This document shows positions 1,214-39,644 of a DNA stretch of 42,868 bases, piece after piece. A program made the position numbers and the translations under genes. The stretch comes from Candidatus Methanoxibalbensis ujae (lineage in GTDB: Archaea > Halobacteriota > Syntropharchaeia > Alkanophagales > Methanospirareceae). The stretch is taken from the NCBI GenBank assembly GCA_026134085.1, contig JAOQIN010000011.1:1-42868 (forward strand), read 5' to 3'. The notes beneath the pieces are model-generated. The model was given only the letters and a program-made list of their open reading frames with translations. It searched no databases and was not told the DNA's origin. Within the stretch, counting starts at the first letter, position 1; each line of letters starts with the position of its first letter.

Positions 1214-2437
1214 TCAGCGGGCAGATGCTGCCAGCGGCTGTTGTGTTTGAGACACTGACGAAGTGCATGCAGTCGCAAGTGCTTCATCAGCATCCACCCT
1301 GCCGAATCCGTATTCAATGTCCCACCCTGCGTTTCCGAGATCATCAGCGGTTCTCGCAAGTATCTTTCTGACATCCTGGTTGCGGAGAGATGCGTTCTGA
1401 GACCACACAAGCGCTGCAACGCCAGCAACAAAAGGAGTTGCCATTGATGTTCCGCTCATATACACATACTTATCGTCCGGATAAGTGGATAGGATATGCT
1501 CTCCCGGAGCAACAAGCTCCATTTGAGCGCCGTAATTGCTGAAACTGCATCTTTTGTTTTTCTCATCTATCGCACCAACGCATATAACCGTTCGGAACTT
1601 GGCGGGATAGCATATCCCCCGTCTGCCATCATTTCCAGCAGCGGCCACAAGTATACATCCTTCTTTCCATGCGTACAGACAGGCTTTTCGCAATGTTTTT
1701 GATGGTGTGTGGCTGCCGAGGCTCATGCTGATTATTTTCGCATCGCTCTGCACGGCGTGGACGATACCTCTCACAACATTCCATGTGCTTCCGATGCCCC
1801 ATCTGTTCAGCACTTTTTCCGCCATTATTTTGACCTGAGAGACTCCTGCAATGCCGAGACCGTTGTCCATGACAGCGGAAGCTATCCCCGCGCAGTGAGT
1901 TCCGTGTCCGTTGTCATCCATGGGGTCATCATCATTGTTCACCCAATCATAACCGCTGTCATCATAATTATCACGCAAATCCTCATGATTGTAGTCAATG
2001 CCTGAGTCAATAATTGCTATTTTCACACTTTTATCGCCCTTCTGAACATCCCAGGCCCTGTCTGCTTTTATTGAGGTAATGCCCCATTGATCGGAATATA
2101 AGGGATCATTGGGCGTGTATAATGCGTGCACAACGAGATTTGGCTCAACAAAACTCACGGAAGGCTCACGTATCATGCTTTTCAAAAAATTCCGATTCGC
2201 ACGCACTAGAACGCAGTTCAACACTGGCTCTCTTTCCAGGACAACACCTCCATGTCTTATGACAAGCATATCCTGTGCTGCAGCCGACACTCCATCCCTG
2301 AAACACACGATCACCTCTCCACTCGCAACTGCATTCGTCGCGGCTGGTGCAGCTGTTGCAGCACTGTGATGGGCTGCGTTCACGGCAATCGCAATAATCA
2401 CAACAAAAAGCCAGATCCCCAATTTTATATGTCTCAT
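1214..2437 (-). CDS. secreted subtilisin-like S8 serine protease (thermitase-like)
   Basis: Signal peptide and propeptide; catalytic motifs IAIIDSGID, HGTHCAG, GTSMATPFVAG; oxyanion AAAGN. ORF is open to 2503; start placed at MRHIKLG. Confidence 0.93.
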   Translation of the reverse strand: MRHIKLGIWLFVVIIAIAVNAAHHSAATAAPAATNAVASGEVIVCFRDGVSAAAQDMLVIRHGGVVLEREPVLNCVLVRANRNFLKSMIREPSVSFVEPNLVVHALYTPNDPLYSDQWGITSIKADRAWDVQKGDKSVKIAIIDSGIDYNHEDLRDNYDDSGYDWVNNDDDPMDDNGHGTHCAGIASAVMDNGLGIAGVSQVKIMAEKVLNRWGIGSTWNVVRGIVHAVQSDAKIISMSLGSHTPSKTLRKACLYAWKEGCILVAAAGNDGRRGICYPAKFRTVICVGAIDEKNKRCSFSNYGAQMELVAPGEHILSTYPDDKYVYMSGTSMATPFVAGVAALVWSQNASLRNQDVRKILARTADDLGNAGWDIEYGFGRVDADEALATACTSSVSQTQQPLAASAR

Positions 2438-2538
2438 CTCACTCAGCATTCCCGTTTCTGCTTTAACTTTAAATAAGTTGCGATATTCATGATTTTTTAT
2501 CAATCTCTCCTCTTCATCATTTCATCAATCTCTCAGAT

Positions 2539-3276
2539 TCAACGGGAGAATTTTGAGAGTGCAGATGAGATGATCTCATATAGTTTTACATCCACATCTC
2601 CGCGCTTGCGAAGCACAGCGGAGAGAAATGCGAGTATTATGAAGGAATATCCGAAGTATCTGCTCAGATCATCTGCCATAACTCCGTGCAGCTGTGCAAT
2701 GATGTTTGAGACCATGACTTCAGCCGCGTATATTGAGAGGATAAGCGGGATTGTCCATAGCCTCAATCTGAATTCTGAAATGTAAAATGCGAGGAGAAGA
2801 GGAGAAATGAAGAATGAAAATTTTGAGATCTCATATATGACAGCGCCAATTGGAGATGCGAGCATGCGTTCAACATACGCTTCAAAATCTGAAACACGAT
2901 GGGCACTGCCTATTATGAGTTTTGAGAATGACTCCCCGAAGAAGTCATATGCATGCCAGTCAACAAACCACTCAGTCACTGTATCATATATTTCCACGAC
3001 ATCATCCTTCACAAATGAATGCGGTGACGCGGATAACATCACATTTTTCTCCTGTGAAATTGGATTTTCAATGAGATACACAGTGATTTTCTCGCTCTCT
3101 TCTTCTCCAAAAATACTCCTCACATCCTCCGGTATTTCATCAATGCCTATCTCCCTGACTGCTGAAACCATATATATGCCCGCTTTCTCCGAATTTGAAT
3201 GTATGATATATGGAACAACAGACAGCGAATAGCATAAAAAAAACAGGAGCATCACAAACAGGCGTCTCTTGCTCAT
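2539..3276 (-). CDS. hypothetical membrane protein
   Basis: 245-aa ORF with N-terminal hydrophobic segment and 3-4 C-terminal TM segments; co-oriented and tightly spaced with both neighbours. Confidence 0.75.
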   Translation of the reverse strand: MSKRRLFVMLLFFLCYSLSVVPYIIHSNSEKAGIYMVSAVREIGIDEIPEDVRSIFGEEESEKITVYLIENPISQEKNVMLSASPHSFVKDDVVEIYDTVTEWFVDWHAYDFFGESFSKLIIGSAHRVSDFEAYVERMLASPIGAVIYEISKFSFFISPLLLAFYISEFRLRLWTIPLILSIYAAEVMVSNIIAQLHGVMADDLSRYFGYSFIILAFLSAVLRKRGDVDVKLYEIISSALSKFSR

Positions 3277-3291
3277 CCCGTCATCAACTCC

Positions 3292-4605
3292 TCATAATCT
3301 CTCTCCATCTTGGTCTTTTTTTCTGCTCATCACTGCACGCTGCCTGCTCTCAAGTTTCAATAATATCAGATATATGATGAACACGAGTGTAATTATGAAG
3401 ATACCTGCGTATATGTATTCGGAAGGGATGAGGGGTTTTGCAGGGAAAACGCTTATCTCATACACATTCATATTGGAGAATTTCTTCCCGAATTCGTCCT
3501 CGTATGATATGAGGATGTTAAACGCGTGCCTGCCGAAATGCACATCATCAGCCACTCTTATGCCGAATGCAACAGTATGCGTGTCATGAGGTGCTATCTC
3601 TCCGACGAACTTGAGACTTTCTGTCAGTATGTCGTCGCCACCTACAATGCGCACCTTCACATTTTCGGCGTTCAATATTCCTGTGTTCACGAGCGTGAGC
3701 ATGAACAGTCCTTCCGTGCCTGCTGTAAGCTGCGAGGGCTCAACTGTTATTTCCTGAATGAGCACATTCGGCAAGCCCCTCACCTCAACGCCTATGCTTG
3801 TGTTTTTTGAGAGGGAGGCGAAGTCGTCGCTGTATTCCATGACGAGAGGCAGCTCATAGTAAATGCGGTCTGCCACCTCAGATGCATGGTGCTCAACAGC
3901 AATATGAAATTCCGCAATGAATCTCTCACCAGGCGCTATTTCGCGGAAATGCACCTCCAGATCCCCGTTCAACGGTGTGAATGGCGTTCTTTCCGTCCTC
4001 AAAACAGCATTAAGTGTTCGTATTCTCGCTTTTCCAACATTCTGCATCTCAACCGTTATCCTTCCTGTGCCCCCGGGCACAAGAACCTCCGGATCCGTTG
4101 AGACATTCAATATATCTATCTCAGACTGCGCAGCCACTCCGCTCACACGCAGTCCAAAATACAAGATGTCGCTGCGTTCCGCGGTTTCACTTTCAAAATC
4201 GTTCGTCCAGTAAACACAGAGCGGGATCTCATACACAGTCGGCGTGGCATTTCGCTCAACGAAGAAATCAAATTCAACAGTCACTTCGCGATCCGTGCCA
4301 ACCGCATAGTAAGGATAATTGCCAACGCTTTTCCGAGCATTCCCCACGACCTTCACAGGCGCTCCCTTTAATTTTTCAGCGAGAACCTCCGCAGACACGC
4401 GATAAGCTGAACGATTTCCCATGTTTTTCAGTGTGATGCGCACAGTCGTTTTTTCAGATGGATGAAGCTCAGTTGGCGAAACACGCAATATGCAGAATTT
4501 CCCCTTTTCGATCTCAGGTGATGAAAGTGCCTGCTGAATCGCGGCAGCGGATGTGGCATTGCAGACCAGAAACAGCATGACGAGGGCGGCAGCCAGTCGT
4601 CTCAT
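3292..4605 (-). CDS. COG1361-type S-layer-domain/Ig-like (CARDB-like) membrane-anchored surface protein
   Basis: Signal peptide MRRLAAALVML; three repeated beta-rich modules (LKNMG, MQNVG, LVNTG); C-terminal TM plus basic tail. ORF is open to 4695. Confidence 0.8.
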   Translation of the reverse strand: MRRLAAALVMLFLVCNATSAAAIQQALSSPEIEKGKFCILRVSPTELHPSEKTTVRITLKNMGNRSAYRVSAEVLAEKLKGAPVKVVGNARKSVGNYPYYAVGTDREVTVEFDFFVERNATPTVYEIPLCVYWTNDFESETAERSDILYFGLRVSGVAAQSEIDILNVSTDPEVLVPGGTGRITVEMQNVGKARIRTLNAVLRTERTPFTPLNGDLEVHFREIAPGERFIAEFHIAVEHHASEVADRIYYELPLVMEYSDDFASLSKNTSIGVEVRGLPNVLIQEITVEPSQLTAGTEGLFMLTLVNTGILNAENVKVRIVGGDDILTESLKFVGEIAPHDTHTVAFGIRVADDVHFGRHAFNILISYEDEFGKKFSNMNVYEISVFPAKPLIPSEYIYAGIFIITLVFIIYLILLKLESRQRAVMSRKKDQDGERL

Positions 4606-4689
4606 GCTTAAAAGATCGTTCAAATGAAAAATAACTTTTTCTTGCCGCTCAAGCCACAGGTAGAGCAAAGCGCTGAGAGGTGAGCACCT

Positions 4690-5502
4690 GTGCATGTTTC
4701 AATCGTGATACCCACATATAATGAAAGAGAAAATATACGCATATTGATACCTGCACTTGTGAACATCATGCGTGAAAACAACATCTCGGGAGAGATTATT
4801 GTGGTTGATGATAACAGCGCCGACGGAACGGCGGAGGAGGTGGAGAGAATATCCAAGATATTTGCGGAGGAGTTCCACATACATGTGATTGTGCGGGAGC
4901 GAAAGATGGGAATTGGCTCCGCGTATAAAACAGGTTTTGCAAACACAACAGGAGATGTCATCTTTGAAATGGACGGTGACCTCTCACACGACCCTGCTAT
5001 GATACCCGAATTCCTCAAAATGTTGCGGACATACGATGTGGTGGTGGGCTCAAGATACATGCGTGGGAACTGCACAAACAATCAGAGCAACTTCAGACGC
5101 ATCATAAGCATCGGCGCGAACATGATTGCGAGAAAGTTGCTTCAGCTCAGTGTCAGAGATGCGACAAGTGGATACCGCGCATACAAAAGAAATGTCATAA
5201 AAAGCATAGATATGAACCATATCCACTCGGAAGGATATGCATTTCAGGTTGAAATGGTGTATAAAGTCGAGAAAAAAGGTTTTAAAATTGGAGAGATTCC
5301 CATAATCTTCAGAGACAGGACGGCTGGACGATCAAAACTCGGAACAAAAGAGGTTGTCAGATTCTTTCTGATAGTGTTAAAACTCGCATTGTTTGACAGA
5401 CGCCCCGGAGGCATCGTGCACAGCCGCAATGAACCTGTGTCGAAAGAAGAAGCGGATACGGTAAATGATAGGGTGATAATAATAGATAAAACAAACAAAT
5501 AA
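4690..5502 (+). CDS. GT2 glycosyltransferase, polyprenol-phosphate mannose synthase (DPM1-like)
   Basis: SIVIPTYNEREN, VVDDNSADGT, EMDGDLSHDP, VVGSRY, DATSGYRAY, GYAFQVEM, FRDRTAGRSKL; GTG start. Confidence 0.92.
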   Translation: MHVSIVIPTYNERENIRILIPALVNIMRENNISGEIIVVDDNSADGTAEEVERISKIFAEEFHIHVIVRERKMGIGSAYKTGFANTTGDVIFEMDGDLSHDPAMIPEFLKMLRTYDVVVGSRYMRGNCTNNQSNFRRIISIGANMIARKLLQLSVRDATSGYRAYKRNVIKSIDMNHIHSEGYAFQVEMVYKVEKKGFKIGEIPIIFRDRTAGRSKLGTKEVVRFFLIVLKLALFDRRPGGIVHSRNEPVSKEEADTVNDRVIIIDKTNK

Positions 5503-16939: not shown

Positions 16940-17188
16940 ATTTTTTTGAGATATAAAATGCATTCAGAAGGCATGATAAATCAAATTTTTTGCATTAAAT
17001 TGTGCACATCTTTTCAATATTTGTGTTTATTTGAATGTTATTCGCTTGCGATTGCATATTTTTGTTCATCCGCAGTGAGGGAAAAAATGAGAGACCTCGC
17101 TTACTGTTTTTATTTTATACTCATATTGGAAAAAACCGAAAATATTTTTATGTGCAATCACCTACATATGAATGGAGGTGATACCTGA

Positions 17189-17962
17189 ATGAAGGGGAGT
17201 AATTTGGTGCTGATGACAATTGCAGTGGTCGCTGTAGGTATCATCGCTATGCCGAGCACAATCTCGCTGTTCGCAGGGCAACACACATGGTATGCAATAA
17301 ATGGCAGCAATGATCTTCCGTGCAGGAAGTGCCACGCAGATGTCTTTGCAGAACTTGAACAGAGCGCATTCCACAAATGGAATGGTTATGACTGGGGTGA
17401 GAATCCTGAGGGAGAACCTGACAACACCGCATGCTACGGCTGTCACAGGGCGAATGCGAGCATTACTTATGCAGATGTTGGAGCTAATGTGACAGATGTC
17501 ACACCCGGTACGAAGGCACACGCAGCTTCTACCGTCGCCTGCATGCTCTGCCACCAGTTCAATGCCAGTGATGCGGTCAATCCGCTTGAAGGAAAGAGTA
17601 TGCCCGGCTTTGCCGCAGGTGGATTCGATCAGCCAGCAGGCAGTCCATACAATTACACAGATGGCACACATCCGGGCGGTCATGCCGCTCACCAGGGGTT
17701 CATTCAGAGTGCGGTGAACGACACAAAGATGGAGGATGCGAATGAAGCATGCATAGCATGTCACACGCACATACCTGTTAAAATTAATTGGACGCACAGA
17801 TACAGCCTTGAGTTCAACTGCACACCTGAGTTTAATTTGCCGCCTACGCACTTCAATGTCACTGACTGGTCAATCAACGGCACATACACCATCACAGTAT
17901 ACGGATGGAGAAACGGAACCGGAGATACAAATATCACAGGATGGCCAGGAAGCTATCCATAG
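17189..17962 (+). CDS. secreted tetraheme cytochrome c, archaeal extracellular cytochrome nanowire (ECN)-like
   Basis: Signal peptide then PSTISLFAGQHTWY; CRKCH, CYGCH, CMLCH, CIACH; 12 N-X-S/T sequons; RBS GGAGGTGAT. Confidence 0.88.
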   Translation: MKGSNLVLMTIAVVAVGIIAMPSTISLFAGQHTWYAINGSNDLPCRKCHADVFAELEQSAFHKWNGYDWGENPEGEPDNTACYGCHRANASITYADVGANVTDVTPGTKAHAASTVACMLCHQFNASDAVNPLEGKSMPGFAAGGFDQPAGSPYNYTDGTHPGGHAAHQGFIQSAVNDTKMEDANEACIACHTHIPVKINWTHRYSLEFNCTPEFNLPPTHFNVTDWSINGTYTITVYGWRNGTGDTNITGWPGSYP

Positions 17963-18977
17963 GATAAAAGGAGAATTTTTCTCTTCTCTTTTTTCTCTTT
18001 TTTCCTTTGAGGTGAAAAGGAAGGTATGAGGAAATGGGGAGTGGTAATATGATATCCTTTTCTTTTAAGGTAAAAAAAAATAAAGGGAAGTGAGAGAAAA
18101 TGAAGAGCAATATTATACTGTTGGCTGTTGCGGTGGTTGCAGTTGGCATATTTGCACTGCCAAGCACCATATCGCTCTTCGCAGGTCAGCACACATGGTA
18201 TAATCTGACTGGAAATCAAAGTGTGCCATGTGAGAAGTGCCATGCGGATGTTGCGAATGAGATGGGCGCTCTGATTGGACCGCACACGGGAGAGACAGGC
18301 TATCAAAGGATGAGATGTGAATATTGCCACAGATATTTCCCCATCTGGCGCAGAAATTCAACATATGAAAACTATACATATGGTGATGTTGGCACTTCAG
18401 CCACAGATGTCACGCCAGGTAAAGAATCACACGCAGCTTCAACTGTTCCATGCATGTATTGCCATAGCGGAGATAAATATGGTGTGAGACATTCCAATGC
18501 AGTAGATTGGAACTGCTGGTCAGCATGCCATTGGGATCCGAGTATGAATCCTAACGGGAGACCCGCTCATGAAGGTAGATATAAAAATAACGAGGATTGC
18601 ATACGATGTCATGGAAATGCTCACACCGGACATATATACTATATTCCACCGGCAGGAGGCTTTAGCCTGACAATTGACTCTGAGGATACAGGAAGCAACG
18701 CTGCGCATAAAGCCTTCGTGATGGAGGCGATAAGCAATTCTGACATGGAGGATGCGAATGAAGCGTGCATAGCATGCCATACGAAAATACCTGTTATAAT
18801 TAACTGGACGCACAGATACAGCCTTGAGTTCAATGCAACGCCTGAGCTTGAATTGCCGCCTACGCACTTCAATGTCACTGACTGGTCAATCAACGGCACA
18901 TACACCATCACAGTATACGGATGGAGAAACGGAACCGGAGATACAAATATCACAGGATGGCCAGGAAGCTATCCATA
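17837..18977 (+). repeat. 125-bp perfect direct repeat (17837-17961 and 18853-18977)
   Basis: Base-by-base identity from TTGCCGCCTACG to AGCTATCCATA in both cytochrome 3' ends. Confidence 0.95.
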
Positions 18978-18978
18978 A
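18100..18978 (+). CDS. secreted multiheme cytochrome c paralog (5 CxxCH + 1 CxxxCH)
   Basis: Same N-terminal motif and C-terminus as the upstream gene; CEKCH, CEYCH, CMYCH, CWSACH, CIRCH, CIACH; 10 sequons. Confidence 0.88.
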   Translation: MKSNIILLAVAVVAVGIFALPSTISLFAGQHTWYNLTGNQSVPCEKCHADVANEMGALIGPHTGETGYQRMRCEYCHRYFPIWRRNSTYENYTYGDVGTSATDVTPGKESHAASTVPCMYCHSGDKYGVRHSNAVDWNCWSACHWDPSMNPNGRPAHEGRYKNNEDCIRCHGNAHTGHIYYIPPAGGFSLTIDSEDTGSNAAHKAFVMEAISNSDMEDANEACIACHTKIPVIINWTHRYSLEFNATPELELPPTHFNVTDWSINGTYTITVYGWRNGTGDTNITGWPGSYP

Positions 18979-19018: not shown

Positions 19019-19097
19019 ATTTTAGCAGTTGCAGCGGGCATATTTACCATAATATCGCCTTTAGCAGGAGCACACTTTGTATGGTGAACTTTGTATG

Positions 19098-19415
19098 GTG
19101 AACTACCCCTTACGCATGGGACTTCTTGCTTCATGGAGGAGACTTGCTTCTCTCAGCCTTGTTACAGGGAGTAGAAGCCTCATCTCAACAGGCTCATAGG
19201 GTTCGACCCCCTTTTATTCTGCAGGCTGAAAATCTCTCGGCAGGTTGTCAAATGACAAAGACAAACATGGTCGGGCTCACCCTGACCGCTCTCATGTCAG
19301 CCTCGTATATTTGATTGAAATTTTCCCCAAGATGCGTCGGGCTTTAACCATGAATCCGTAAGTTTTCAACAACTGTAACATCGTGACATAGAATCCACTT
19401 ATGAAGGAAATCATA
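19098..19415 (-). pseudogene. tnpB: degenerate tnpB 3' half with right-end/omegaRNA region
   Basis: Fragments DFLHK, HDVTVVENLRI, MVK, YEADMRAVRVSP, EPVEMRLLL, MKQEVPCVRG; ends GGGGTAGTTCAC at 19098. Confidence 0.65.
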
Positions 19416-29035: not shown

Positions 29036-29473
29036 TCCTCAACTCCCTTAGTCACTCCGCCTTTATACAATTATTGAAAATGGCAGCATTGTTGTGCTGC
29101 GCTGTGATTGATTTTTTAAGCTGCCTCTTTTTTTAAGCTGCCTCTCATCAGAGAGGGAGAGGAGCGCCCAGATGGGATCATCTCCGTCATTGGTTGAGCA
29201 GGATATGGCAGGATGAAGCAGGGGCAAGATGAAGCAGGAACCTGTCTGGATATCCCGGTGAGTGGTGCAAAGAAAGAAAGAAAAGAAGAACAGAATACAG
29301 AAAAGAAAACAGAAAAAAGGAAGGGAAAGAAATAAGAGGATGCCCCCGTGTGATTAAGCGTGTGATTAAGCCACGGCGACCAGGAGAATGAGAAGTGGTA
29401 GATAAAGTGGTAGATAAATGAGAAGAGAAGAAGAAGAGAGAAAAAAGAAAAGGAATAAGGAAGGGGAGGTCGG

Positions 29474-29878
29474 ATGGCTGTCAGGAAGTCTCTGAGGAAT
29501 GCGCTGAGGAGGCATCGCAGGATAAAATTCAGGAGATACCTCTGGTATTCCAAGAAGAGCCTGGAGAAAAGTGGCTGGCGGAGACCGAGAGGCATACACA
29601 ACAAGCTGCGAAAGGAGAAAAAGGGAAAAGGAAGACTTGTGAAAGTGGGATACCGCATCAAGAGGGAATGGCGCGGTCTCCATCCGTCAGGACACCGTGA
29701 AGTGCTCGTTCACAATCTCAACGAACTGCTCAAAGTGAAAGAAGAAGTGGAAGAAGATATAAAAGAAGGCGAGGAAAGCGGAGTTGTGATACGCATCGCG
29801 AGCACTGTGGGCGCGAAGAAGCGGGAGATTATCGTTGCGGAAGCGGAGAAAATGGGTCTGCGCGTTTTGAATCCATGA
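29474..29878 (+). CDS. rpl32e: 50S ribosomal protein L32e
   Basis: KFRR, WRRPRGIHNKLR, VKVGY, RGLHPSGHREVLVHN, RIASTVGAKKR, RVLNP. Confidence 0.93.
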   Translation: MAVRKSLRNALRRHRRIKFRRYLWYSKKSLEKSGWRRPRGIHNKLRKEKKGKGRLVKVGYRIKREWRGLHPSGHREVLVHNLNELLKVKEEVEEDIKEGEESGVVIRIASTVGAKKREIIVAEAEKMGLRVLNP

Positions 29879-30059
29879 CGCACTCACAACGCACTCATAC
29901 ATGCAGGTCCTTCCTGACTTCTCCACTCAGGCTGACTTCTCCACTCAGGCATGGCTCGGATTTTGGGCTCAATTAGCCGACAGGAGCAGATGAAGCAGAT
30001 GAAAAATGAGAACAAAATAAGGGATAAAATGAAAAATCAAAAAACCAAAAAACAAAAGA

Positions 30060-32735
30060 TCACGAAGCGAGATCTATCTGTGGGTATATCTGTTTGTCCT
30101 TGAAACAGTTGAGTGATATAGCGCTTGATGGGCAGGAGCCCGCGCAGTTACCGCAGCCCATGCATATGCTTTCGTTTACTTTTGCCACTCTTCTCACAAT
30201 GCTTGTGTGAGTTTTGGCGGAGTATGTGATGGCGGGCACGCTCTCCTCAACGAGTTCAATTGCTCTCACAGGACAGACAGTCATGCATGTGCCGCATCCT
30301 GAGCAGGCTTCGGTGTCAACAACGGAAACTGCGCCTCCGCTCTCCATGAACTTTTTTGACAGTATTTCAAGCGCTCTCGCAGCTGCTGCCGATGATTGGG
30401 CGATGCACTCATCAAGCGTCGCTGGAAATATCGCAGAGCCGCACACGAACACTCCTTCTTTAAGGGTGTCAACGGGGGTTGTCCGCATTTTCGGTCGCTC
30501 GTTTGCGATTCTGAAGAAGCCCTTTTTCGTCGGAATGTGCAGCATGTCGGCGAGTCTCTCATTGTCCTCCGCCGGGAGAAGAGGCGTGCTCAGCACGACA
30601 ATATCGGGCTTTATCTGAATTTCATCGTTGAATATCTCATCAAACACGGTTATAATGCCGTTCTCATATTTGGGAGGTTGCTTGTAGCGCAGAAATATAA
30701 CGCCCTGCCGCCTCGCCTCTTTATAGAGGAGCTCCCATTTCCCGTATGTCCTCATATCCCTGTATAAAACGAGCACGTTCTTCGCAAATTTCTTCGCGAG
30801 AAGCGCGTTCTTCACAGCCTCAATACAGCACACCCTGGAGCAGTAGTCCACAGCATCACCCCATCCGACGCACTGAATCATCACCACAGTCTCAGCATCC
30901 AGTTTTCCGCTTGCGAGCATTTTCTCAAATTCAATCTGAGTTTTCACATTTGCATCACTGCCGTAGTTGTAGAATCCGGTTGGTGTGAAAGGACGGGTTC
31001 CGGTCGCGAGTATGCATGCGCCGAATGTTATCTCCCGCTCCTCTCCATCCTTCATTTTTATTCTCGCCCTGAAATCTCCCGGCCTTCCGGAAATCTCAAC
31101 GACCTCAGCACCGGTGAACACAGTTATGCGCTCTTTCCTCCCCTCTATCTCTGAGATCATCCTGTTCAAAATCTCTGATGCCTTCTCACCAGATGGCAGC
31201 ACATCAATCTCGCGCAGATATCCGCCGAGCTCATCGGATTTCTCAACAAGATACACATCATAACCCGCGTCTGCGATGTCAATCGCCGCTCTCATCCCTG
31301 ACACGCCTCCGCCTATCACGAGCGCACTTGCCACAACAGGATATTGCTCAATGACAACTTCATCAAACCGCATCACCTTCTCAACGCCCATCTCTATGAG
31401 ATTCTTCGCCTTCTCCGTTGCATCACCGACATCATGAGAACACTGCTCAAATCCTATAACCTCCATCATGAATGGATTCAATCCCGCGTCTGCACACGCA
31501 GTTCTCAGCGCCTTCTCATATTTGCGAGGTGAGAATCCAGCTACGATTATCCTGTTCACCCCCTCATCAACGGCACGGGAGATCGCACGCACAGCATCCT
31601 CATAGGACTTCACTCCCTCATCCACATACACAACATCCTTGAGGTTGCGCGCATGCTCAACAACCGCTGACACATCTATCGCATCTGATGCGCTGTTTAT
31701 TATGATGCCCGTGCGAGGTTTCTCCTCATATTCATATTCGCGAGCCTCAGGAAGAACACCGTCCCTCTCGCTCATCAATGCCGCTTTCATCGCAGCAGCT
31801 TCTGCAAACGCAACACTTTCACCCACCATCATCGGCGCTCTCGCCGCTCCTCCCACAAATATGCCCTCCACATTCGTCTCAACAGGTCTTTCAGATGATG
31901 TCCGCACGAATCCAAATTCATCACACTCAACACCCAACTTTGATGCAAGCTCACTCATAGTCTTTGATGGCAGCAGACCGACAGCAAGAACGACCATGTC
32001 AAATTCCATCCTTTCCACTGTCCCCTTCTCAAGATCCTCATATTTCGCAACCAGTTTGCCATCTTCCACAATTATCTCAGGAACTCTTGACCTCACATAC
32101 TTCACTCCCTTTCCCTTTATCTCCTCCACAATCTCATCATAACGCTGAAATGTGCGCACATCCATGTAAAATATGCATATATCAACATCAGGATAGCGGT
32201 CCTTCACTATCTTCGCCTCCTTCGCTGTGTATCCGCAGCAAGCTGAAGAGCAAATCTCATTTTGTTTGCATCTTGAGCCCATGCACTTTATGAAACACAA
32301 GCGCTCAACACGCTTTCCGTCAGATGGCCTTTTCAACTCACCCTTCTTCTCTCTCAATATCCTCTCAAATTCAAGCGATGTGACAACATCGGGATGATCA
32401 ATCGCATAGCTCTTGGGGATATCATCAAACACATCATAGCCCGGCGTCAGAACCACACTCGCAACATCAACCTCACGACCTGAGACCCGCAGTTTGAATT
32501 TTCCAGCACCGCCTGAAATTCCCTCCACCTCGCTTGAGAGCATCAGTTCTATGTTTGGATGTGCCTGAACTTCTGCGATAAGCGGCGCCAAACCCATCTC
32601 ACACTCAGCGAGCTCACCCATCTTCCCGCCTAACCTGCTCTCTCTCTCAATCAGATAAACCTTATATCCCGAATTTGCAAGAGTCAAAGCGGAATTTATT
32701 CCTGCAATTCCTCCTCCTATGACAGCAATAGCCAT
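30060..32735 (-). CDS. hdrA: heterodisulfide reductase subunit A-like protein with two FAD modules
   Basis: Two Rossmann motifs (IGGGIAG, IGGGVSG); two cluster motifs (CMGSR...CSSACC; CVGW...CSRVCC); C-terminal 2x[4Fe-4S] ferredoxin (CSGCGTC...CP, CMGCGNC...CP). Confidence 0.93.
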   Translation of the reverse strand: MAIAVIGGGIAGINSALTLANSGYKVYLIERESRLGGKMGELAECEMGLAPLIAEVQAHPNIELMLSSEVEGISGGAGKFKLRVSGREVDVASVVLTPGYDVFDDIPKSYAIDHPDVVTSLEFERILREKKGELKRPSDGKRVERLCFIKCMGSRCKQNEICSSACCGYTAKEAKIVKDRYPDVDICIFYMDVRTFQRYDEIVEEIKGKGVKYVRSRVPEIIVEDGKLVAKYEDLEKGTVERMEFDMVVLAVGLLPSKTMSELASKLGVECDEFGFVRTSSERPVETNVEGIFVGGAARAPMMVGESVAFAEAAAMKAALMSERDGVLPEAREYEYEEKPRTGIIINSASDAIDVSAVVEHARNLKDVVYVDEGVKSYEDAVRAISRAVDEGVNRIIVAGFSPRKYEKALRTACADAGLNPFMMEVIGFEQCSHDVGDATEKAKNLIEMGVEKVMRFDEVVIEQYPVVASALVIGGGVSGMRAAIDIADAGYDVYLVEKSDELGGYLREIDVLPSGEKASEILNRMISEIEGRKERITVFTGAEVVEISGRPGDFRARIKMKDGEEREITFGACILATGTRPFTPTGFYNYGSDANVKTQIEFEKMLASGKLDAETVVMIQCVGWGDAVDYCSRVCCIEAVKNALLAKKFAKNVLVLYRDMRTYGKWELLYKEARRQGVIFLRYKQPPKYENGIITVFDEIFNDEIQIKPDIVVLSTPLLPAEDNERLADMLHIPTKKGFFRIANERPKMRTTPVDTLKEGVFVCGSAIFPATLDECIAQSSAAAARALEILSKKFMESGGAVSVVDTEACSGCGTCMTVCPVRAIELVEESVPAITYSAKTHTSIVRRVAKVNESICMGCGNCAGSCPSSAISLNCFKDKQIYPQIDLAS

Positions 32736-32793
32736 TTCTCAACGCCTCCTTTATTCAGAAGATCACTTCACCTTCACTTCACACTTCACCTGA

Positions 32794-33657
32794 TCACTTC
32801 ACCTTATCAAGCACGCGCTTGGGAGATACTATCACCTTTCCAAGGCCAAGTTTTCCCTCAGATATTCCGAGTGCGAGACCGAGAAGCTGTGTGAAATAGA
32901 GCACGGGTATCCTGTATTCCTCATTATACTTCTCCTCTATGTCCTGCTGCTTGGCATCCAGCATCATCTGACAGAGAGGACATGCCACAGAGATGCAGTC
33001 AACATCAGCACGTTTTGCCTCATCAAGTATCATGCGAGTCATAGCATACGATATTTCAGGATTGAACATCATCAGGCCACCGCCACAGCACTTCGCCTTT
33101 CGCCTGAAATCCACCACCTCAGCACCTGCTGCCTCAAGAACGCGATCCATCGCAGTCGGGTCATCAGGGTCATCAAAGGCAGCATTTGAAGGTCTTCCGA
33201 TAAAACATCCGTAATATGGTGCGACCTTTATGCCGAGATTCTTCTTCACCTTGCTCTTTATTTTTTCCTCTCCAACATCATTCGCAATCACATCAAGTAT
33301 ATGACGCACATTCAGCGTTCCTTTGTAGTCCAGGCTTGCATCTATCTCGCTGATTTTTTTTCTCAATTCCTCGTTTTCCTTCAACTCTACATTTGTCCTT
33401 GCGAGGTTTATATAGCATGCGTTGCATGCTGCGACAACATCCAGTCCCTTTGTTCTCTCTCCTTTCTCAGAGAGCGCAAGTGTTCTCGCGTTAAGCGCAT
33501 ACAGGAGAAGTCCAGTAGCCTCCAAAGCCCCGCAGCAGTTCCAGTCCTCAATTTCAATCAGCTCTATGTCAAGCTCCTCACACACAGCGTGCACGGACAT
33601 CTCATATTCCTTTGAAGTTGTGTGGGCTGTGCATCCCGGATAATATGCATAACGCAT
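32794..33657 (-). CDS. hdrB: heterodisulfide reductase subunit B
   Basis: Two CCG domains: YYPGC, WNCCG, ACNAC; YYGC, KCCGG, ACPLC. Confidence 0.96.
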   Translation of the reverse strand: MRYAYYPGCTAHTTSKEYEMSVHAVCEELDIELIEIEDWNCCGALEATGLLLYALNARTLALSEKGERTKGLDVVAACNACYINLARTNVELKENEELRKKISEIDASLDYKGTLNVRHILDVIANDVGEEKIKSKVKKNLGIKVAPYYGCFIGRPSNAAFDDPDDPTAMDRVLEAAGAEVVDFRRKAKCCGGGLMMFNPEISYAMTRMILDEAKRADVDCISVACPLCQMMLDAKQQDIEEKYNEEYRIPVLYFTQLLGLALGISEGKLGLGKVIVSPKRVLDKVK

Positions 33658-33687
33658 TATATCTCACCTCTGTCCACTAACCTCAGT

Positions 33688-34314
33688 CTACTGTCGCCCC
33701 TCCGCGGTCTCAGCAGCCTCAGCAGCGATCTTCTCCTCATGTTCTCTGATCTTCTCAAATATCCGTGCGATCTCCTCTCTCCTTCTTATTTTATCTGGGA
33801 GGAGAGCTGTCTTTCCTTTGAGGAACAGGGCCATTCCGAGTCTCCGGTAATCTTTCATCATCTGAAGAATCCTTCCCTTGTAGAACTCACGCATCAGCCC
33901 CATCTCATACTGTCTGCCATATTTCCTGACCTGATTCAGGAATGCATGTGCGAAATCGGGCCTTCTGCTTCTTATCTCCAGTTTTCCTTTTTCAGCTTCC
34001 CTCTCAGCGATCCTGTGAATGGCACCCATAACCTCAGAGAAACGGACATCCTGCGGACACCACTCACGACATATCTGGCATGATGCGCAGAACCATATCT
34101 CCGGTCTTGAGAGGACCTGAGAACGAAGTCCGAGAATGCTCATCTGTATGACTTTTCTCGGATTATATTCAAAGCCTAGCTCCCTACCGACCTCGGTGAC
34201 AGGACAGCCGAGCGTGCATGTGGAACACTGATAGCAGTTCAGCAGATTCTCACCGCCGGGCTCTCTCATTATCTCATATTTGAAGTCCGGGTCTGTCTCC
34301 TCCCATCTGATCAT
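33688..34314 (-). CDS. hdrC: heterodisulfide reductase subunit C
   Basis: CYQCSTCTLGCP, IWFCASCQICREWCPQDV. Confidence 0.95.
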   Translation of the reverse strand: MIRWEETDPDFKYEIMREPGGENLLNCYQCSTCTLGCPVTEVGRELGFEYNPRKVIQMSILGLRSQVLSRPEIWFCASCQICREWCPQDVRFSEVMGAIHRIAEREAEKGKLEIRSRRPDFAHAFLNQVRKYGRQYEMGLMREFYKGRILQMMKDYRRLGMALFLKGKTALLPDKIRRREEIARIFEKIREHEEKIAAEAAETAEGRQ

Positions 34315-34355
34315 TATGCACCGCCTCCTTATGCACCGCCTCCACCTCACTGCAA

Positions 34356-35417
34356 TCAACGCAGATATTCCTCATACTCCTCCTCCTTGTATGTGGTGAG
34401 CGGAAGAGGCTCCTCAACGCTCTTTCCCGGCTCGTAGTCAAACATCTCCTGCACCTTCGCAGCGACCATCGGATATATTTTCGTGAGAGGAATCTCGCTC
34501 GGACACGCATCCTCACATGCACCGCAGCCAACGCATGTCGTGCACACATGATAAAGCCTCGTGAGATGATAGAACATCTGAACGGGCGATGGAACCCTGA
34601 GAACACCTCTCAACTCAGCAAGGTTGAGCAGATCACCTCCCTTCACATCACCGAGCGGCTGCTCAAAAAAGCACACCTTGCAGTAACAAACAGGACACAT
34701 GTCACGACAGTTCTTGCACAGTATGCACGATGCAAGCACATCATCAAGCTCCTCCACACTGCTTATGCGGGCGATCTCAGATTCCCTCTTCTTCGCTTCC
34801 TCCGCTATTTTTGCACGCTCACCCTCACGAGACACATCTTTGTCCTCCACAGCGAGTTCAATCGCCGAGATCGCATCCTCTCCCTTCTGTGATAGCGCAA
34901 CTATCTGCACCTTATCCGAATCAACACGCGCAATTCCGATGTCTCCATATTCCGCAAGCCGCTTGTCGCATATCTGACACGCTGTCCGCAGCTCAACTCC
35001 TTTCTTCCTCAGATCATCAACCTTTGACGCATCAAGCACATCACCGATCTCATCTGTATGCTCCGCATAGTCCTTCAGATTATACGCACCTGCACAGTCC
35101 ACACTGATCAAAAGAACGCTTTCAGGCGATATCTGCTCGAGCTTTATGAGCTCAATCGCCGCCCTTATCTCACATGGCTTCGCAACAATCCCCATCTTCT
35201 GCTCTATCGTCCATCCTTTCGCAATGTTCGCAGCACTTATCCCGAAAACTGGCACAAAGAGAACAGGTGAGCCCATTTTCTCGGGATCCCTGATAAGCAT
35301 GTACGTCACTGTTTTGCCCACCCTGAAAGGCAGCATCAGGCAGTCCACAACATTCTTCGCCAGAAGCTCCTTCAGAAAACCTTCCAATTCATTCACTCCA
35401 ATTTCAGCCACCTTCAT
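34356..35417 (-). CDS. FdhB/FrhB-family subunit (putative F420-interacting) with C-terminal 2x[4Fe-4S]
   Basis: VAKPCEIRAAIELIKLEQ, ISVDC, LRTACQIC, CILCKNCRDMCPVCYCKVC, CVGCGACEDACP. Confidence 0.85.
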   Translation of the reverse strand: MKVAEIGVNELEGFLKELLAKNVVDCLMLPFRVGKTVTYMLIRDPEKMGSPVLFVPVFGISAANIAKGWTIEQKMGIVAKPCEIRAAIELIKLEQISPESVLLISVDCAGAYNLKDYAEHTDEIGDVLDASKVDDLRKKGVELRTACQICDKRLAEYGDIGIARVDSDKVQIVALSQKGEDAISAIELAVEDKDVSREGERAKIAEEAKKRESEIARISSVEELDDVLASCILCKNCRDMCPVCYCKVCFFEQPLGDVKGGDLLNLAELRGVLRVPSPVQMFYHLTRLYHVCTTCVGCGACEDACPSEIPLTKIYPMVAAKVQEMFDYEPGKSVEEPLPLTTYKEEEYEEYLR

Positions 35418-35830
35418 AGGCGTCCCCTCAGAGGATTTGGTCCCAACTTCCTCACATAATCCACCATATCCTTCATAGTCCTCGCAAACTTCTCACCCTC
35501 CGCTGCTGATATCCACTCAAGCCTCACACGGTTGTCAAGCCCAAACTCCTTCAGTATCCTGCGCATCGCCGCAATCCTGCGCCTCGTGTAGTAGTTCGCT
35601 TCAATGTAATGGCACTCCCCCGGATGGCATCCTCCTATGAAAACGGCATCCGCTCCATTTAACAACGCACGAAGCACGAACATCGGATCCACCCGTGATG
35701 AACACATCACCCTGATTATCCGTATGTTTGGCGGATACTTCATACGAGATGTGCCCGCAAGGTCTATCGCCGCATATGTGCACCAGTTGCACGCAAAACC
35801 CACTATCTTCGGCTCAAACTCATCCGCCAT
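35414..35830 (-). CDS. mvhD: MvhD [2Fe-2S] adaptor subunit
   Basis: FEPKIVGFACNWCTY, IRVMCSSRVDP, GCHPGECHY, WISAAEG. Confidence 0.96.
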   Translation of the reverse strand: MADEFEPKIVGFACNWCTYAAIDLAGTSRMKYPPNIRIIRVMCSSRVDPMFVLRALLNGADAVFIGGCHPGECHYIEANYYTRRRIAAMRRILKEFGLDNRVRLEWISAAEGEKFARTMKDMVDYVRKLGPNPLRGRL

Positions 35831-36297
35831 TTGCTCTCCCAAAAGAAAACAGGCATATTTAAAGCTTTTTGTTTTTTGCGCATGTCCTCCCCGCTTGTTT
35901 TCCGTTTCCTCCTCCCCCTTCATCCCCGAGGGCTCAGCTTCTCATTTCTATATTCATCAGAGTCGGAGAGTCGGAAGGAGCGATGCCATCTCCTCATAGT
36001 CTGCTGCACCTGAGATGCAATAAATAATAATAAATAATAATAATAAAAACAATACTGAGCCAGTGTGTACACGCTATCTCCAATTGCTTCATCCTGCATC
36101 TGAACAACTTACTACAAAATCCATTCAGCCCGCTCGATGAATATCTGCAGCAGAAACATAACATAAAATGACATGCACAGATTCCCAAATAAATTCAGCA
36201 AATCCATGTTTGCTGATGGATATTCAGAATGGTGGAAAGAATGGTGGAAAGTATCTCCCCTTCAGAGAAAATAAAGATTTCCTCCTCACTTAAGGCT

Positions 36298-39086: not shown

Positions 39087-39644
39087 ATGGAGGCGAAACT
39101 GATTGCTGGAATTGCAGCTGCAATAATTGTGATTGGAGCGATCGCAGGAGCGTTTATAGCACTGGCTCCTCCACCCTCTCCTGCACCTTCTCCCACACCG
39201 GCGCATTCACCAACTCCGACACAGAGGCCAACTCCTACGACCACTCCAACTCAGAGACCAACGCCAACACCTATGACACTGAGCTGTGATATGTGCCATG
39301 ATCGTGAGCGCACAGCTGCCTTAGATGCACACACGAAGGGAGGATACCTGATAAATGGGAAGCCCGGATGCTTTGACTACGAGAATTTAGGAGGCTGCCA
39401 CGGCGGTCCTAATGCAACTGTTCACACAGTTCACGCAGGCGTCGTGGGATGCACACAGTGCCACGGCAGCCCTGAACCGCATATACCCGAGAAAGGACCT
39501 GGAAACACAACATGTGAGCAATGCCACGGATATCCGAACTCTTTGGAGCCCTACACAAACCTCGTTGACATTCACCTGAAACGAGGAAAGCCCTGCACAG
39601 TATGTCACAGAGGTGAGATCTCAGAGATACACGGCATGAAGTGA
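39087..39644 (+). CDS. membrane-anchored multiheme cytochrome c with Pro/Thr stalk
   Basis: N-terminal TM; PSPAPSPTP...TPTP linker; CDMCH, CTQCH, CEQCH, CTVCH, plus a CX8CH (CFDYENLGGCH). Confidence 0.88.
   Translation: MEAKLIAGIAAAIIVIGAIAGAFIALAPPPSPAPSPTPAHSPTPTQRPTPTTTPTQRPTPTPMTLSCDMCHDRERTAALDAHTKGGYLINGKPGCFDYENLGGCHGGPNATVHTVHAGVVGCTQCHGSPEPHIPEKGPGNTTCEQCHGYPNSLEPYTNLVDIHLKRGKPCTVCHRGEISEIHGMK

Follow-up and report, generated by a model that had tools for sequence, protein, structure and literature searches.

A tandem pair of four-heme and predicted six-heme AvECN-family cytochromes in an ANME-1 archaeon, candidate major and minor subunits of one extracellular filament

The gene pair and its surroundings

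The window, that is, the whole stretch of 42,868 nt analysed here, comes from Candidatus Methanoxibalbensis ujae. The host is an ANME-1 archaeon; its genome (1.99 Mb, 89% complete) contains genes with Ccm motifs and a single McrA, found by motif, whose best match (E 5e-294) is 3SQG, the ANME-1 enzyme. Two cytochrome genes, separated by 137 nt according to the ORF list, lie in tandem on the same strand of the window, together with the following features.

17174..17181, plus strand: Shine-Dalgarno-like GGAGGTGA 5' of gene 1, from the sequence
17189..17962, plus strand: gene 1 (P0001), AvECN-family tetraheme cytochrome of 257 aa, by phmmer to 8E5G; putative major subunit
17189..17266, plus strand: predicted signal peptide of gene 1, residues 1-26, by hydropathy and alignment, cleaved presumably before LFAGQH
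17267..17293, plus strand: N-terminal arm LFAGQHTWY of gene 1 with the conserved His32, by alignment
17765..17959, plus strand: C-terminal tail of gene 1 after heme 4, common to gene 2; predicted beta-strands in a low-confidence model
17837..17961, plus strand: 125-nt exact repeat, copy 1, likely a recent gene-conversion tract, by DNA comparison and sequencing-run depth
17976..18008, plus strand: oligo-T tract 3' of gene 1, likely an archaeal terminator, from the sequence and a similar tract at the orthologous locus L043
18100..18978, plus strand: gene 2 (P0002), AvECN-family six-heme variant of 292 aa, by phmmer to 8E5G; putative minor subunit
18100..18174, plus strand: predicted signal peptide of gene 2, residues 1-25, by hydropathy
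18466..18654, plus strand: insert of gene 2 between heme motifs 3 and 4, residues 123-185 (63 residues), carrying CWSACH, CIRCH, His131 and His157
18781..18975, plus strand: C-terminal tail of gene 2 after heme 4, by alignment with gene 1
18853..18977, plus strand: 125-nt exact repeat, copy 2, by DNA comparison and sequencing-run depth
18991..19017, plus strand: oligo-T tract 3' of gene 2, likely a terminator, from the sequence

The protein encoded by gene 1 carries four CxxCH motifs and that of gene 2 five CxxCH motifs plus one CxxxCH (CWSACH); the first-pass annotation, which had described a 4-heme subunit and a 6-heme variant, was right about the four CxxCH of gene 1, the sixth motif of gene 2 being non-canonical. 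Four core motifs lie at AvECN positions in both proteins, and four additional histidines, recognisable from their contexts (GQH, one after heme 1, HAAST and AAH), are found at H32/62/111/168 in gene 1 and at H31/62/111/203 in gene 2. PSTISLFAGQHTWY is common to the two proteins, as is the arm LFAGQHTWY, which is identical at the protein level with three of its eight codons silently different. Both chains have a single hydrophobic stretch, at the N-terminus (KD19 2.3 in gene 1 and 2.5 in gene 2), and beyond residue 30 the KD19 maximum is 0.8 and 0.6, respectively; a signal peptide and no C-terminal anchor are predicted for each, both calls being made from hydropathy alone. Sequons for N-glycosylation number 12 in gene 1 (shuffle mean 2.4, with none of 5000 shuffles as high) and 10 in gene 2 (shuffle mean 3.1, with about one shuffle in 5000 as high). 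The signal peptides, the shared sequence, the four aligned CxxCH and His, the sequons and the lack of an anchor had been listed in the first-pass annotation and reappear here; the shared C-terminus, also listed, proved to be stronger than stated, 68 of 73 residues being identical and the DNA containing an exact repeat of 125 nt.

An assembly artefact, considered as the source of the identical tails, was rejected on two observations: in run X1, possibly the source sample, the repeat forms one 125-nt unitig of depth 381, twice that of its two exits (177 and 175), and a single contig of run X2, from another study, links the last part of gene 1 with the beginning of gene 2. Since the tail of gene 2 differs both in run X2 and in the 96% identical homolog P0003, the exact identity of the 125 nt is strain-specific and likely recent.

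No processing operon was found beside the pair, whose neighbours are a pdxS-like gene (PF01680), a likely IS remnant and an IF-2B-family gene; the degenerate sequence at about 19080-19400 of the window, 3' of gene 2, presumably resembles an IS200/IS605 remnant. The Rfam scan of the window returned tRNA only, and a scan for bacterial sigma-70-type promoters and terminators, which is unsuited to archaea, stayed at chance level (7 vs 5.4 and 0 vs 1.7). Elsewhere in the window, a cluster at 29116-35923 on the minus strand encodes an HdrA-like flavoprotein, 4Fe-4S proteins and MvhD (FlpD), and subtilase (S8) and CARDB-domain genes at 1214-4695 likely form a secreted surface cluster. At 39087-39644 there is a 185-aa protein with four CxxCH motifs, an N-terminal hydrophobic helix and a Pro/Thr linker, giving no Pfam match at 1e-5; a protein of similar build, with a weak match to the family HMM, is encoded near the nine-heme gene of Archaeoglobus veneficus (L110, 9569-10138).

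Relation to AvECN and the inserted heme module

In a phmmer search of all PDB sequences, the protein of gene 1 matches 8E5G (AvECN, UniProt F2KMU8) over residues 1-257 with E 1.4e-67, and that of gene 2 matches the same chain with E 3.2e-47 in two stretches on either side of residues 126-192, so that the four-heme core of gene 2 is intact around its insert. 8E5G is the sole PDB chain found at E<=0.001 for either protein, bearing out an assignment to the A. veneficus-type family that the first-pass annotation had made from motifs; identity amounts to 130 of 247 aligned residues (53%) for gene 1 and 119 of 230 (52%) for gene 2. All eight Cys and four motif His of AvECN align with the pair; of its distal His, H32, H108 and H165 correspond to His in both proteins and H64 to a His in P0001, and two additional tail His are common to the pair and AvECN. 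The two proteins gave no match at E<=1, among PDB sequences, to the solved Geobacter nanowire subunits (OmcS, OmcE, OmcZ) or to PcECN (8E5F), the Pyrobaculum calidifontis tetraheme filament whose heme stacking is as in AvECN (PMC12954529); of the comparison with AvECN and PcECN proposed in the first-pass annotation, only the AvECN half yielded a relation. Pfam gives generic multiheme matches only. On sequence grounds, the two genes are members of the AvECN family; for gene 2, the nearest named homolog comes from Ca. Methanospirare jalkutatii (68%).

The AlphaFold2 apo models contribute little to this assignment. The P0001 model (pLDDT 48.1) retrieves 8E5G first in a fold search (E 2e-9), a match which, given a TM of 0.26 and an rmsd of 22, is driven by sequence; fold searches with the P0002 model, a poor one (pLDDT 57.7), returned no match. 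The only confident part of the latter is the insert, with block means of 78-91, although the models do not fix where it sits on the core.

That one or both proteins are non-filamentous, acting as soluble or surface-bound glycosylated carriers in the envelope or matrix, has a precedent in OmcT, only OmcS of the omcS-omcT operon being known as a wire-former (PMC12977616); moreover, the solved filaments include none of an ANME-1 protein, and the Methanoperedens ECN homolog is only tentatively tied to a filament (PMC13748539). This alternative is nevertheless regarded as quite unlikely, as the two proteins are 53% and 52% identical to a solved filament subunit along almost their entire mature length, retain its N-arm and tail, and have no membrane anchor.

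The inserted module was followed in a set of 122 proteins (the two queries plus the best 120 of 540 matches), 94 of which make up alignment A3. Among the 71 six-motif rows of this alignment, drawn from those best 120 of 540 matches, His131 is present in 64 and His157 in 70, and a free His stands ahead of each inserted motif in 67, as it does ahead of the inserted motif in all 16 five-motif rows. As far as the alignment can tell, the insert is likely to bring its own distal ligands, with His131 and His157 as candidates, the four His of the core being left in place (the four distal His of gene 2, H31/62/111/203, are kept in 70-71 of the 71 six-motif rows, H62 in all 71). The insert alone has no match among PDB sequences below E 0.89.

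The six hemes of gene 2 are a prediction, the count requiring one non-canonical motif, CxxxCH; the homolog P0003 has CWSCH where gene 2 has CWSACH. Variation at this position is frequent: among the 122 proteins, the first inserted motif is Cx2CH in 61, CxCH in 27, Cx3CH in 11 and Cx4CH in 2, while 6 proteins have one inserted motif and 15 are without insert motifs. The contracted CxCH is seen, for instance, in P0019, P0023, P0027 and P0030, and many proteins annotated as 'five-heme' may, to judge from their motifs, be six-heme proteins with an unusual one.

Arrays, gene order and tail homogenisation

The first-pass annotation had considered the pair the best candidate for a new system in the window, an overstatement: the AvECN locus has the same layout, and family matches occur, often as arrays, in 28 of the 61 genomes searched around the host. 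They are also present in 32 of the 92 genomes of the family of an Archaeoglobus locus, and named loci with members include Methanophagales, Syntrophoarchaeum and Archaeoglobaceae. The pair, as family searches indicate, is not a new system, such arrays being common in ANME-1, Syntrophoarchaeum and Archaeoglobaceae, and AvECN homologs in ANME and Methanocellales are already in print (PMC13748539; PMC11176372; PMC13046784).

AvECN shares with the pair the signal peptide, an LFxGQHxWY arm, four CxxCH motifs, the distal His and the tail. Next after its gene (262 aa, L104), across a gap of 171 nt, comes an insert paralog with a matched tail, P0111, with five hemes, that is, one extra heme motif where gene 2 has two; the A. 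veneficus genome also encodes a six-heme paralog and a 3+9 pair. The pair differs from AvECN in its ANME-1 host, in its 10-12 sequons and in that AvECN was solved as a homopolymer of the four-heme protein. Other systems are less close. MmcX (Met12, Methanocellales) and ECN-Mv (Ca. Methanoperedens vercellensis) are reported AvECN homologs with four hemes, highly expressed or detected extracellularly (PMC13748539; PMC11176372), which are treated as single proteins, with no insert variant or array discussed in the portions available of these papers. The Geobacter omcS-omcT-GSU2501 genes are likewise tandem paralogs of nanowire cytochromes; unlike the pair, they have six hemes throughout and no inserted heme module, and tail homogenisation is not reported in what was available of PMC12977616; the PDB search found no sequence relation. 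OmcZ and the predicted five-heme OmcE-like 'leaky' wires resemble the pair in having an extra heme off the linear chain (PMC12954529; bioRxiv 2025.10.22.684050); their folds are unrelated, and the branch heme is in every subunit of the homopolymer rather than, as proposed here, in the product of a rarer separate gene.

The host has seven family members at four loci: besides the window pair there are another 4+6 pair, a pair of the 6+9 type and a single short form. The second tandem pair (C80:1-1824) has its own matched arm, LFAGQHAWY, and its own tail, which is 71% identical within the pair and 58% identical to that of the window genes; its first 20 residues are the same, at the DNA level, as the signal peptide of gene 1. 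At the third locus (C67:29769-31885; L002 5770-7886), a six-heme gene with a core 76% identical to that of gene 2 and a different, short tail overlaps a 423-aa gene for a nine-heme protein, which consists of the AvECN core plus five C-terminal hemes. The short form (C19:2702-3304, L003) is a divergent four-heme member without the GQH arm.

The array set comprised 130 non-redundant members with arm and core motifs from 103 loci. A three-motif variant, with one of the first two heme motifs missing, accounts for 13 of the 130 and often heads arrays (loci include L014, L038, L049, L054, L057, L065, L085, L090 and L098). In the loci compared, a short-tail gene lies directly upstream of all 19 non-redundant large members (7-10 motifs), in three cases with a variant tail; conversely, 11 of the 12 short-tail members stand before a 7/9-heme gene, the twelfth being truncated by the locus end, and no such neighbour follows any of the other 87 members. 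This module, present also in A. veneficus (L110), is a candidate for an adaptor with its end piece.

In the window pair, the heme 1-3 core is identical at 36 of 70 residues (51%) and heme 4 plus tail at 68 of 73 (93%), with silent differences at 18 of 35 shared degenerate codons in the core and 6 of 64 in heme 4 plus tail. AvECN and P0111 behave in the same way: the core is identical at 29 of 68 residues (43%) and heme 4 plus tail at 75 of 76 (99%), and silent codon differences are 15 of 28 and 11 of 71. For a wider comparison, use was made of those 99 of the 130 members that combine four core motifs with a full tail, 9 short-tail ones then being removed by pattern. Tail identity exceeds core identity in 11 of the 15 adjacent pairs of a plain and an insert gene (median +22 points; four are negative), several of these pairs being kin and not independent; among 1885 between-locus pairs the tail exceeds the core in 17% (median -12). 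N-arms are likewise matched within arrays, and in all 15 mixed pairs the plain gene precedes the insert gene.

Trees were built (LG+G4) from 45 rows, that is, 43 of the 99 members, chosen from loci with mixed arrays and short tails, and the two A. veneficus genes, with only 81 columns for the core and 72 for the tail. Heme class changes 4 times along the core tree and 14 times along the tail tree; for locus the figures are 31 and 19. With the core data, the AU test rejects a clade for the window pair (p 0.036) and for the A. veneficus pair (p 0.032); the tail tree joins the window pair (SH-aLRT 97), and the tail data reject clades made up of the core sisters (p 5e-80 and p 3e-6), groups that were defined once the core tree had been seen. 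Tails follow arrays and cores follow class, which shows that gene conversion has repeatedly homogenised the tail.

In the literature searched, which did not include Baquero et al. 2023 (reportedly on AvECN homologs in alkane-oxidising archaea), no account was found of arrays of AvECN genes, variants with the insert, conversion of tails or filaments of mixed composition, nor of the short-tail/nine-heme module. Tail homogenisation, the plain-first order and the contrast between 4-heme and 6-heme transcripts (see below) were not found in print for this type of pair.

Conversion of the tail may have been selected to keep subunits compatible; it can also be neutral between tandem duplicates. The main rival to a reading of the two products as major and minor subunits of one filament is that they form two separate homopolymers, an insulated four-heme wire and a rarer, 'leaky' six-heme wire, the shared tail reflecting neutral conversion or a common signal for secretion or assembly. 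All solved cytochrome filaments, AvECN included, have indeed been described as homopolymers (bioRxiv 2023.06.12.544705; PMC11936953); gene 2 retains every core motif, the N-arm and the tail, the insert gene stands without a plain neighbour at some loci (among them L037, L040, L042 and L055), and conversion as such is documented by the low silent divergence. Against two homopolymers speak the fixed order in 15 of 15 pairs, the recurrence of tail matching across ANME-1 and Archaeoglobaceae and the matching of N-arms within arrays too; furthermore, products of one cell with the same arm and tail would be hard to segregate if the contacts are located there. Separate wires are, on these grounds, a possible but rather doubtful explanation.

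Transcript levels and a possible division of labour

The sequencing runs listed include no RNA run with this strain, and transcript levels were taken from relatives; three tiny 'metatranscriptomic' runs, probably DNA and covering only coding parts of relatives, were left out. Locus L043 of isolate AOM70-1 (contig c_000000000222) holds the orthologous pair, its gene 1 being identical to that of the window at 228 of 257 residues (89%), and its coordinates coincide with those of MW690_000115-118 (PMC9539880, Table S4). In the AOM70-1 assembly both genes (L043 5854-7681) are split, one by an in-frame stop and one by a frameshift, likely as a result of long-read errors; because of these splits, each of the '3-heme' cytochromes published as top-expressed is one half of a four- or six-heme gene of the AvECN family. 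The table gives mean CLR values (log2) of 5.94 and 5.52 for the pieces of gene 1 and 2.97 and 3.30 for those of gene 2, next to 8.04 for mcrA and 1.7 and 3.2 for flaB, and MW690_000115, a piece of gene 1, tops the 12 rows of the cytochrome sheet (PMC9539880). In the AOM70 pair the four-heme transcript exceeds the six-heme one 4.7-7.8-fold (about 5-8-fold).

The BLAST column of PMC9539880 links the L043 genes to C4B56_09100 (6.57) and C4B56_09095 (1.84) of PMC5947290, the table of which also lists C4B56_09090 (3.54) and a nine-motif gene (0.28). On these rows the G60 four-heme transcript exceeds the six-heme one 8-27-fold, and the nine-motif row is about 78-fold below the plain gene; the G60 rows were assigned to the family via that BLAST column, length and motif count only, the nine-motif row by length and motif count. 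The oligo-T tract 3' of gene 1, present in the window and in L043, might cause partial termination, read-through then yielding less transcript of gene 2.

Filament length per subunit is about 3-4 nm. A lower expression of the six-heme gene, as in the orthologous pair, would also be expected if its product were an end piece (initiator, base adaptor or tip) located at one end of the filament and passing electrons through its extra hemes, a coupling role which would suit them and for which the matched tail would permit one-sided docking. However, transcript ratios of 5-8-fold (AOM70) or 8-27-fold (G60) imply a share that is high for a protein present only once in a filament made of hundreds of subunits, and a better candidate exists elsewhere in the short-tail gene plus 7-10-heme gene module, the 9-motif row of which, membership being inferred, is the one about 78-fold below the plain gene in G60; the end-piece explanation is accordingly considered unlikely.

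The data on the pair point to a relation of major and minor subunit rather than to an even mix of the two proteins, which the first-pass annotation had pictured as co-polymerising. Given the matched tails, the fixed plain-first order and the unequal transcripts of the orthologous pair, the reading to which we lean, though at somewhat less than an even chance, is that gene 1 encodes the major subunit and gene 2 a minor, branch subunit of one filament. Both proteins would be exported by Sec, receive their hemes from the Ccm apparatus and be N-glycosylated; they would then polymerise head to tail into a heme-stacked filament, as in 8E5G, the product of gene 1 being the abundant subunit of this secreted structure and that of gene 2 entering the four-heme filament as a minority subunit. 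If subunit contacts are held by the N-arm and the tail, the interface role of the latter being assumed, gene conversion of the tail would keep both subunits compatible while core and insert diverge. The two extra hemes of gene 2 would lie off the four-heme axis as points of entry or exit for electrons; for five-heme OmcE relatives, extra solvent-exposed hemes on an intact core have been predicted (bioRxiv 2025.10.22.684050). The final acceptor would be a sulfate-reducing partner cell: the host being an ANME-1 archaeon, known ANME-1 physiology makes a partner bacterium more likely than a mineral, the two having been left side by side in the first-pass annotation. Heme-stained filaments do sit between ANME-1 and partner cells (PMC5947290), and ANME-1 are without the giant S-layer cytochromes of ANME-2 (PMC9012536), OmcZ being rare in them (PMC13748539).

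Several points weigh against the major/minor reading. The solved filaments are described as homopolymers, and yet a matched-tail paralog adjoins the AvECN gene itself; conversion may be neutral, and the pattern is missing in 4 of 15 arrays; the heme 1-3 core, only about 50% alike in the two proteins, may also form contacts. In addition, ECN filaments have been neither observed in attachment to a cell nor demonstrated to conduct respiratory current (PMC13748539).

In a broader form, which is possible though on balance doubtful, AvECN-type wires would be multi-component, like pili, with a four-heme shaft, minor subunits bearing one or two branch hemes in a plug-in loop and kept compatible by tail gene conversion, and a dedicated adaptor with a short tail together with an end piece of nine hemes; genes for all of these parts exist in this genome and in A. 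veneficus, and the structure would be the wire of ANME-1 to its partner.

The pair bears on how ANME-1 pass methane-derived electrons to sulfate reducers, for which it supplies concrete wire candidates; the '3-heme' protein with the highest expression among the cytochromes of an ANME-1c culture, left unplaced when published, proves to be part of an AvECN-family gene, one that shares 89% identity with gene 1. Should the products of insert paralogs be built into the filament, nanowires would not be simple homopolymers and would contain genetically encoded taps, and the question of the minor subunit can be tested in the cultured A. veneficus, in which a gene pair of the same kind includes the solved AvECN.
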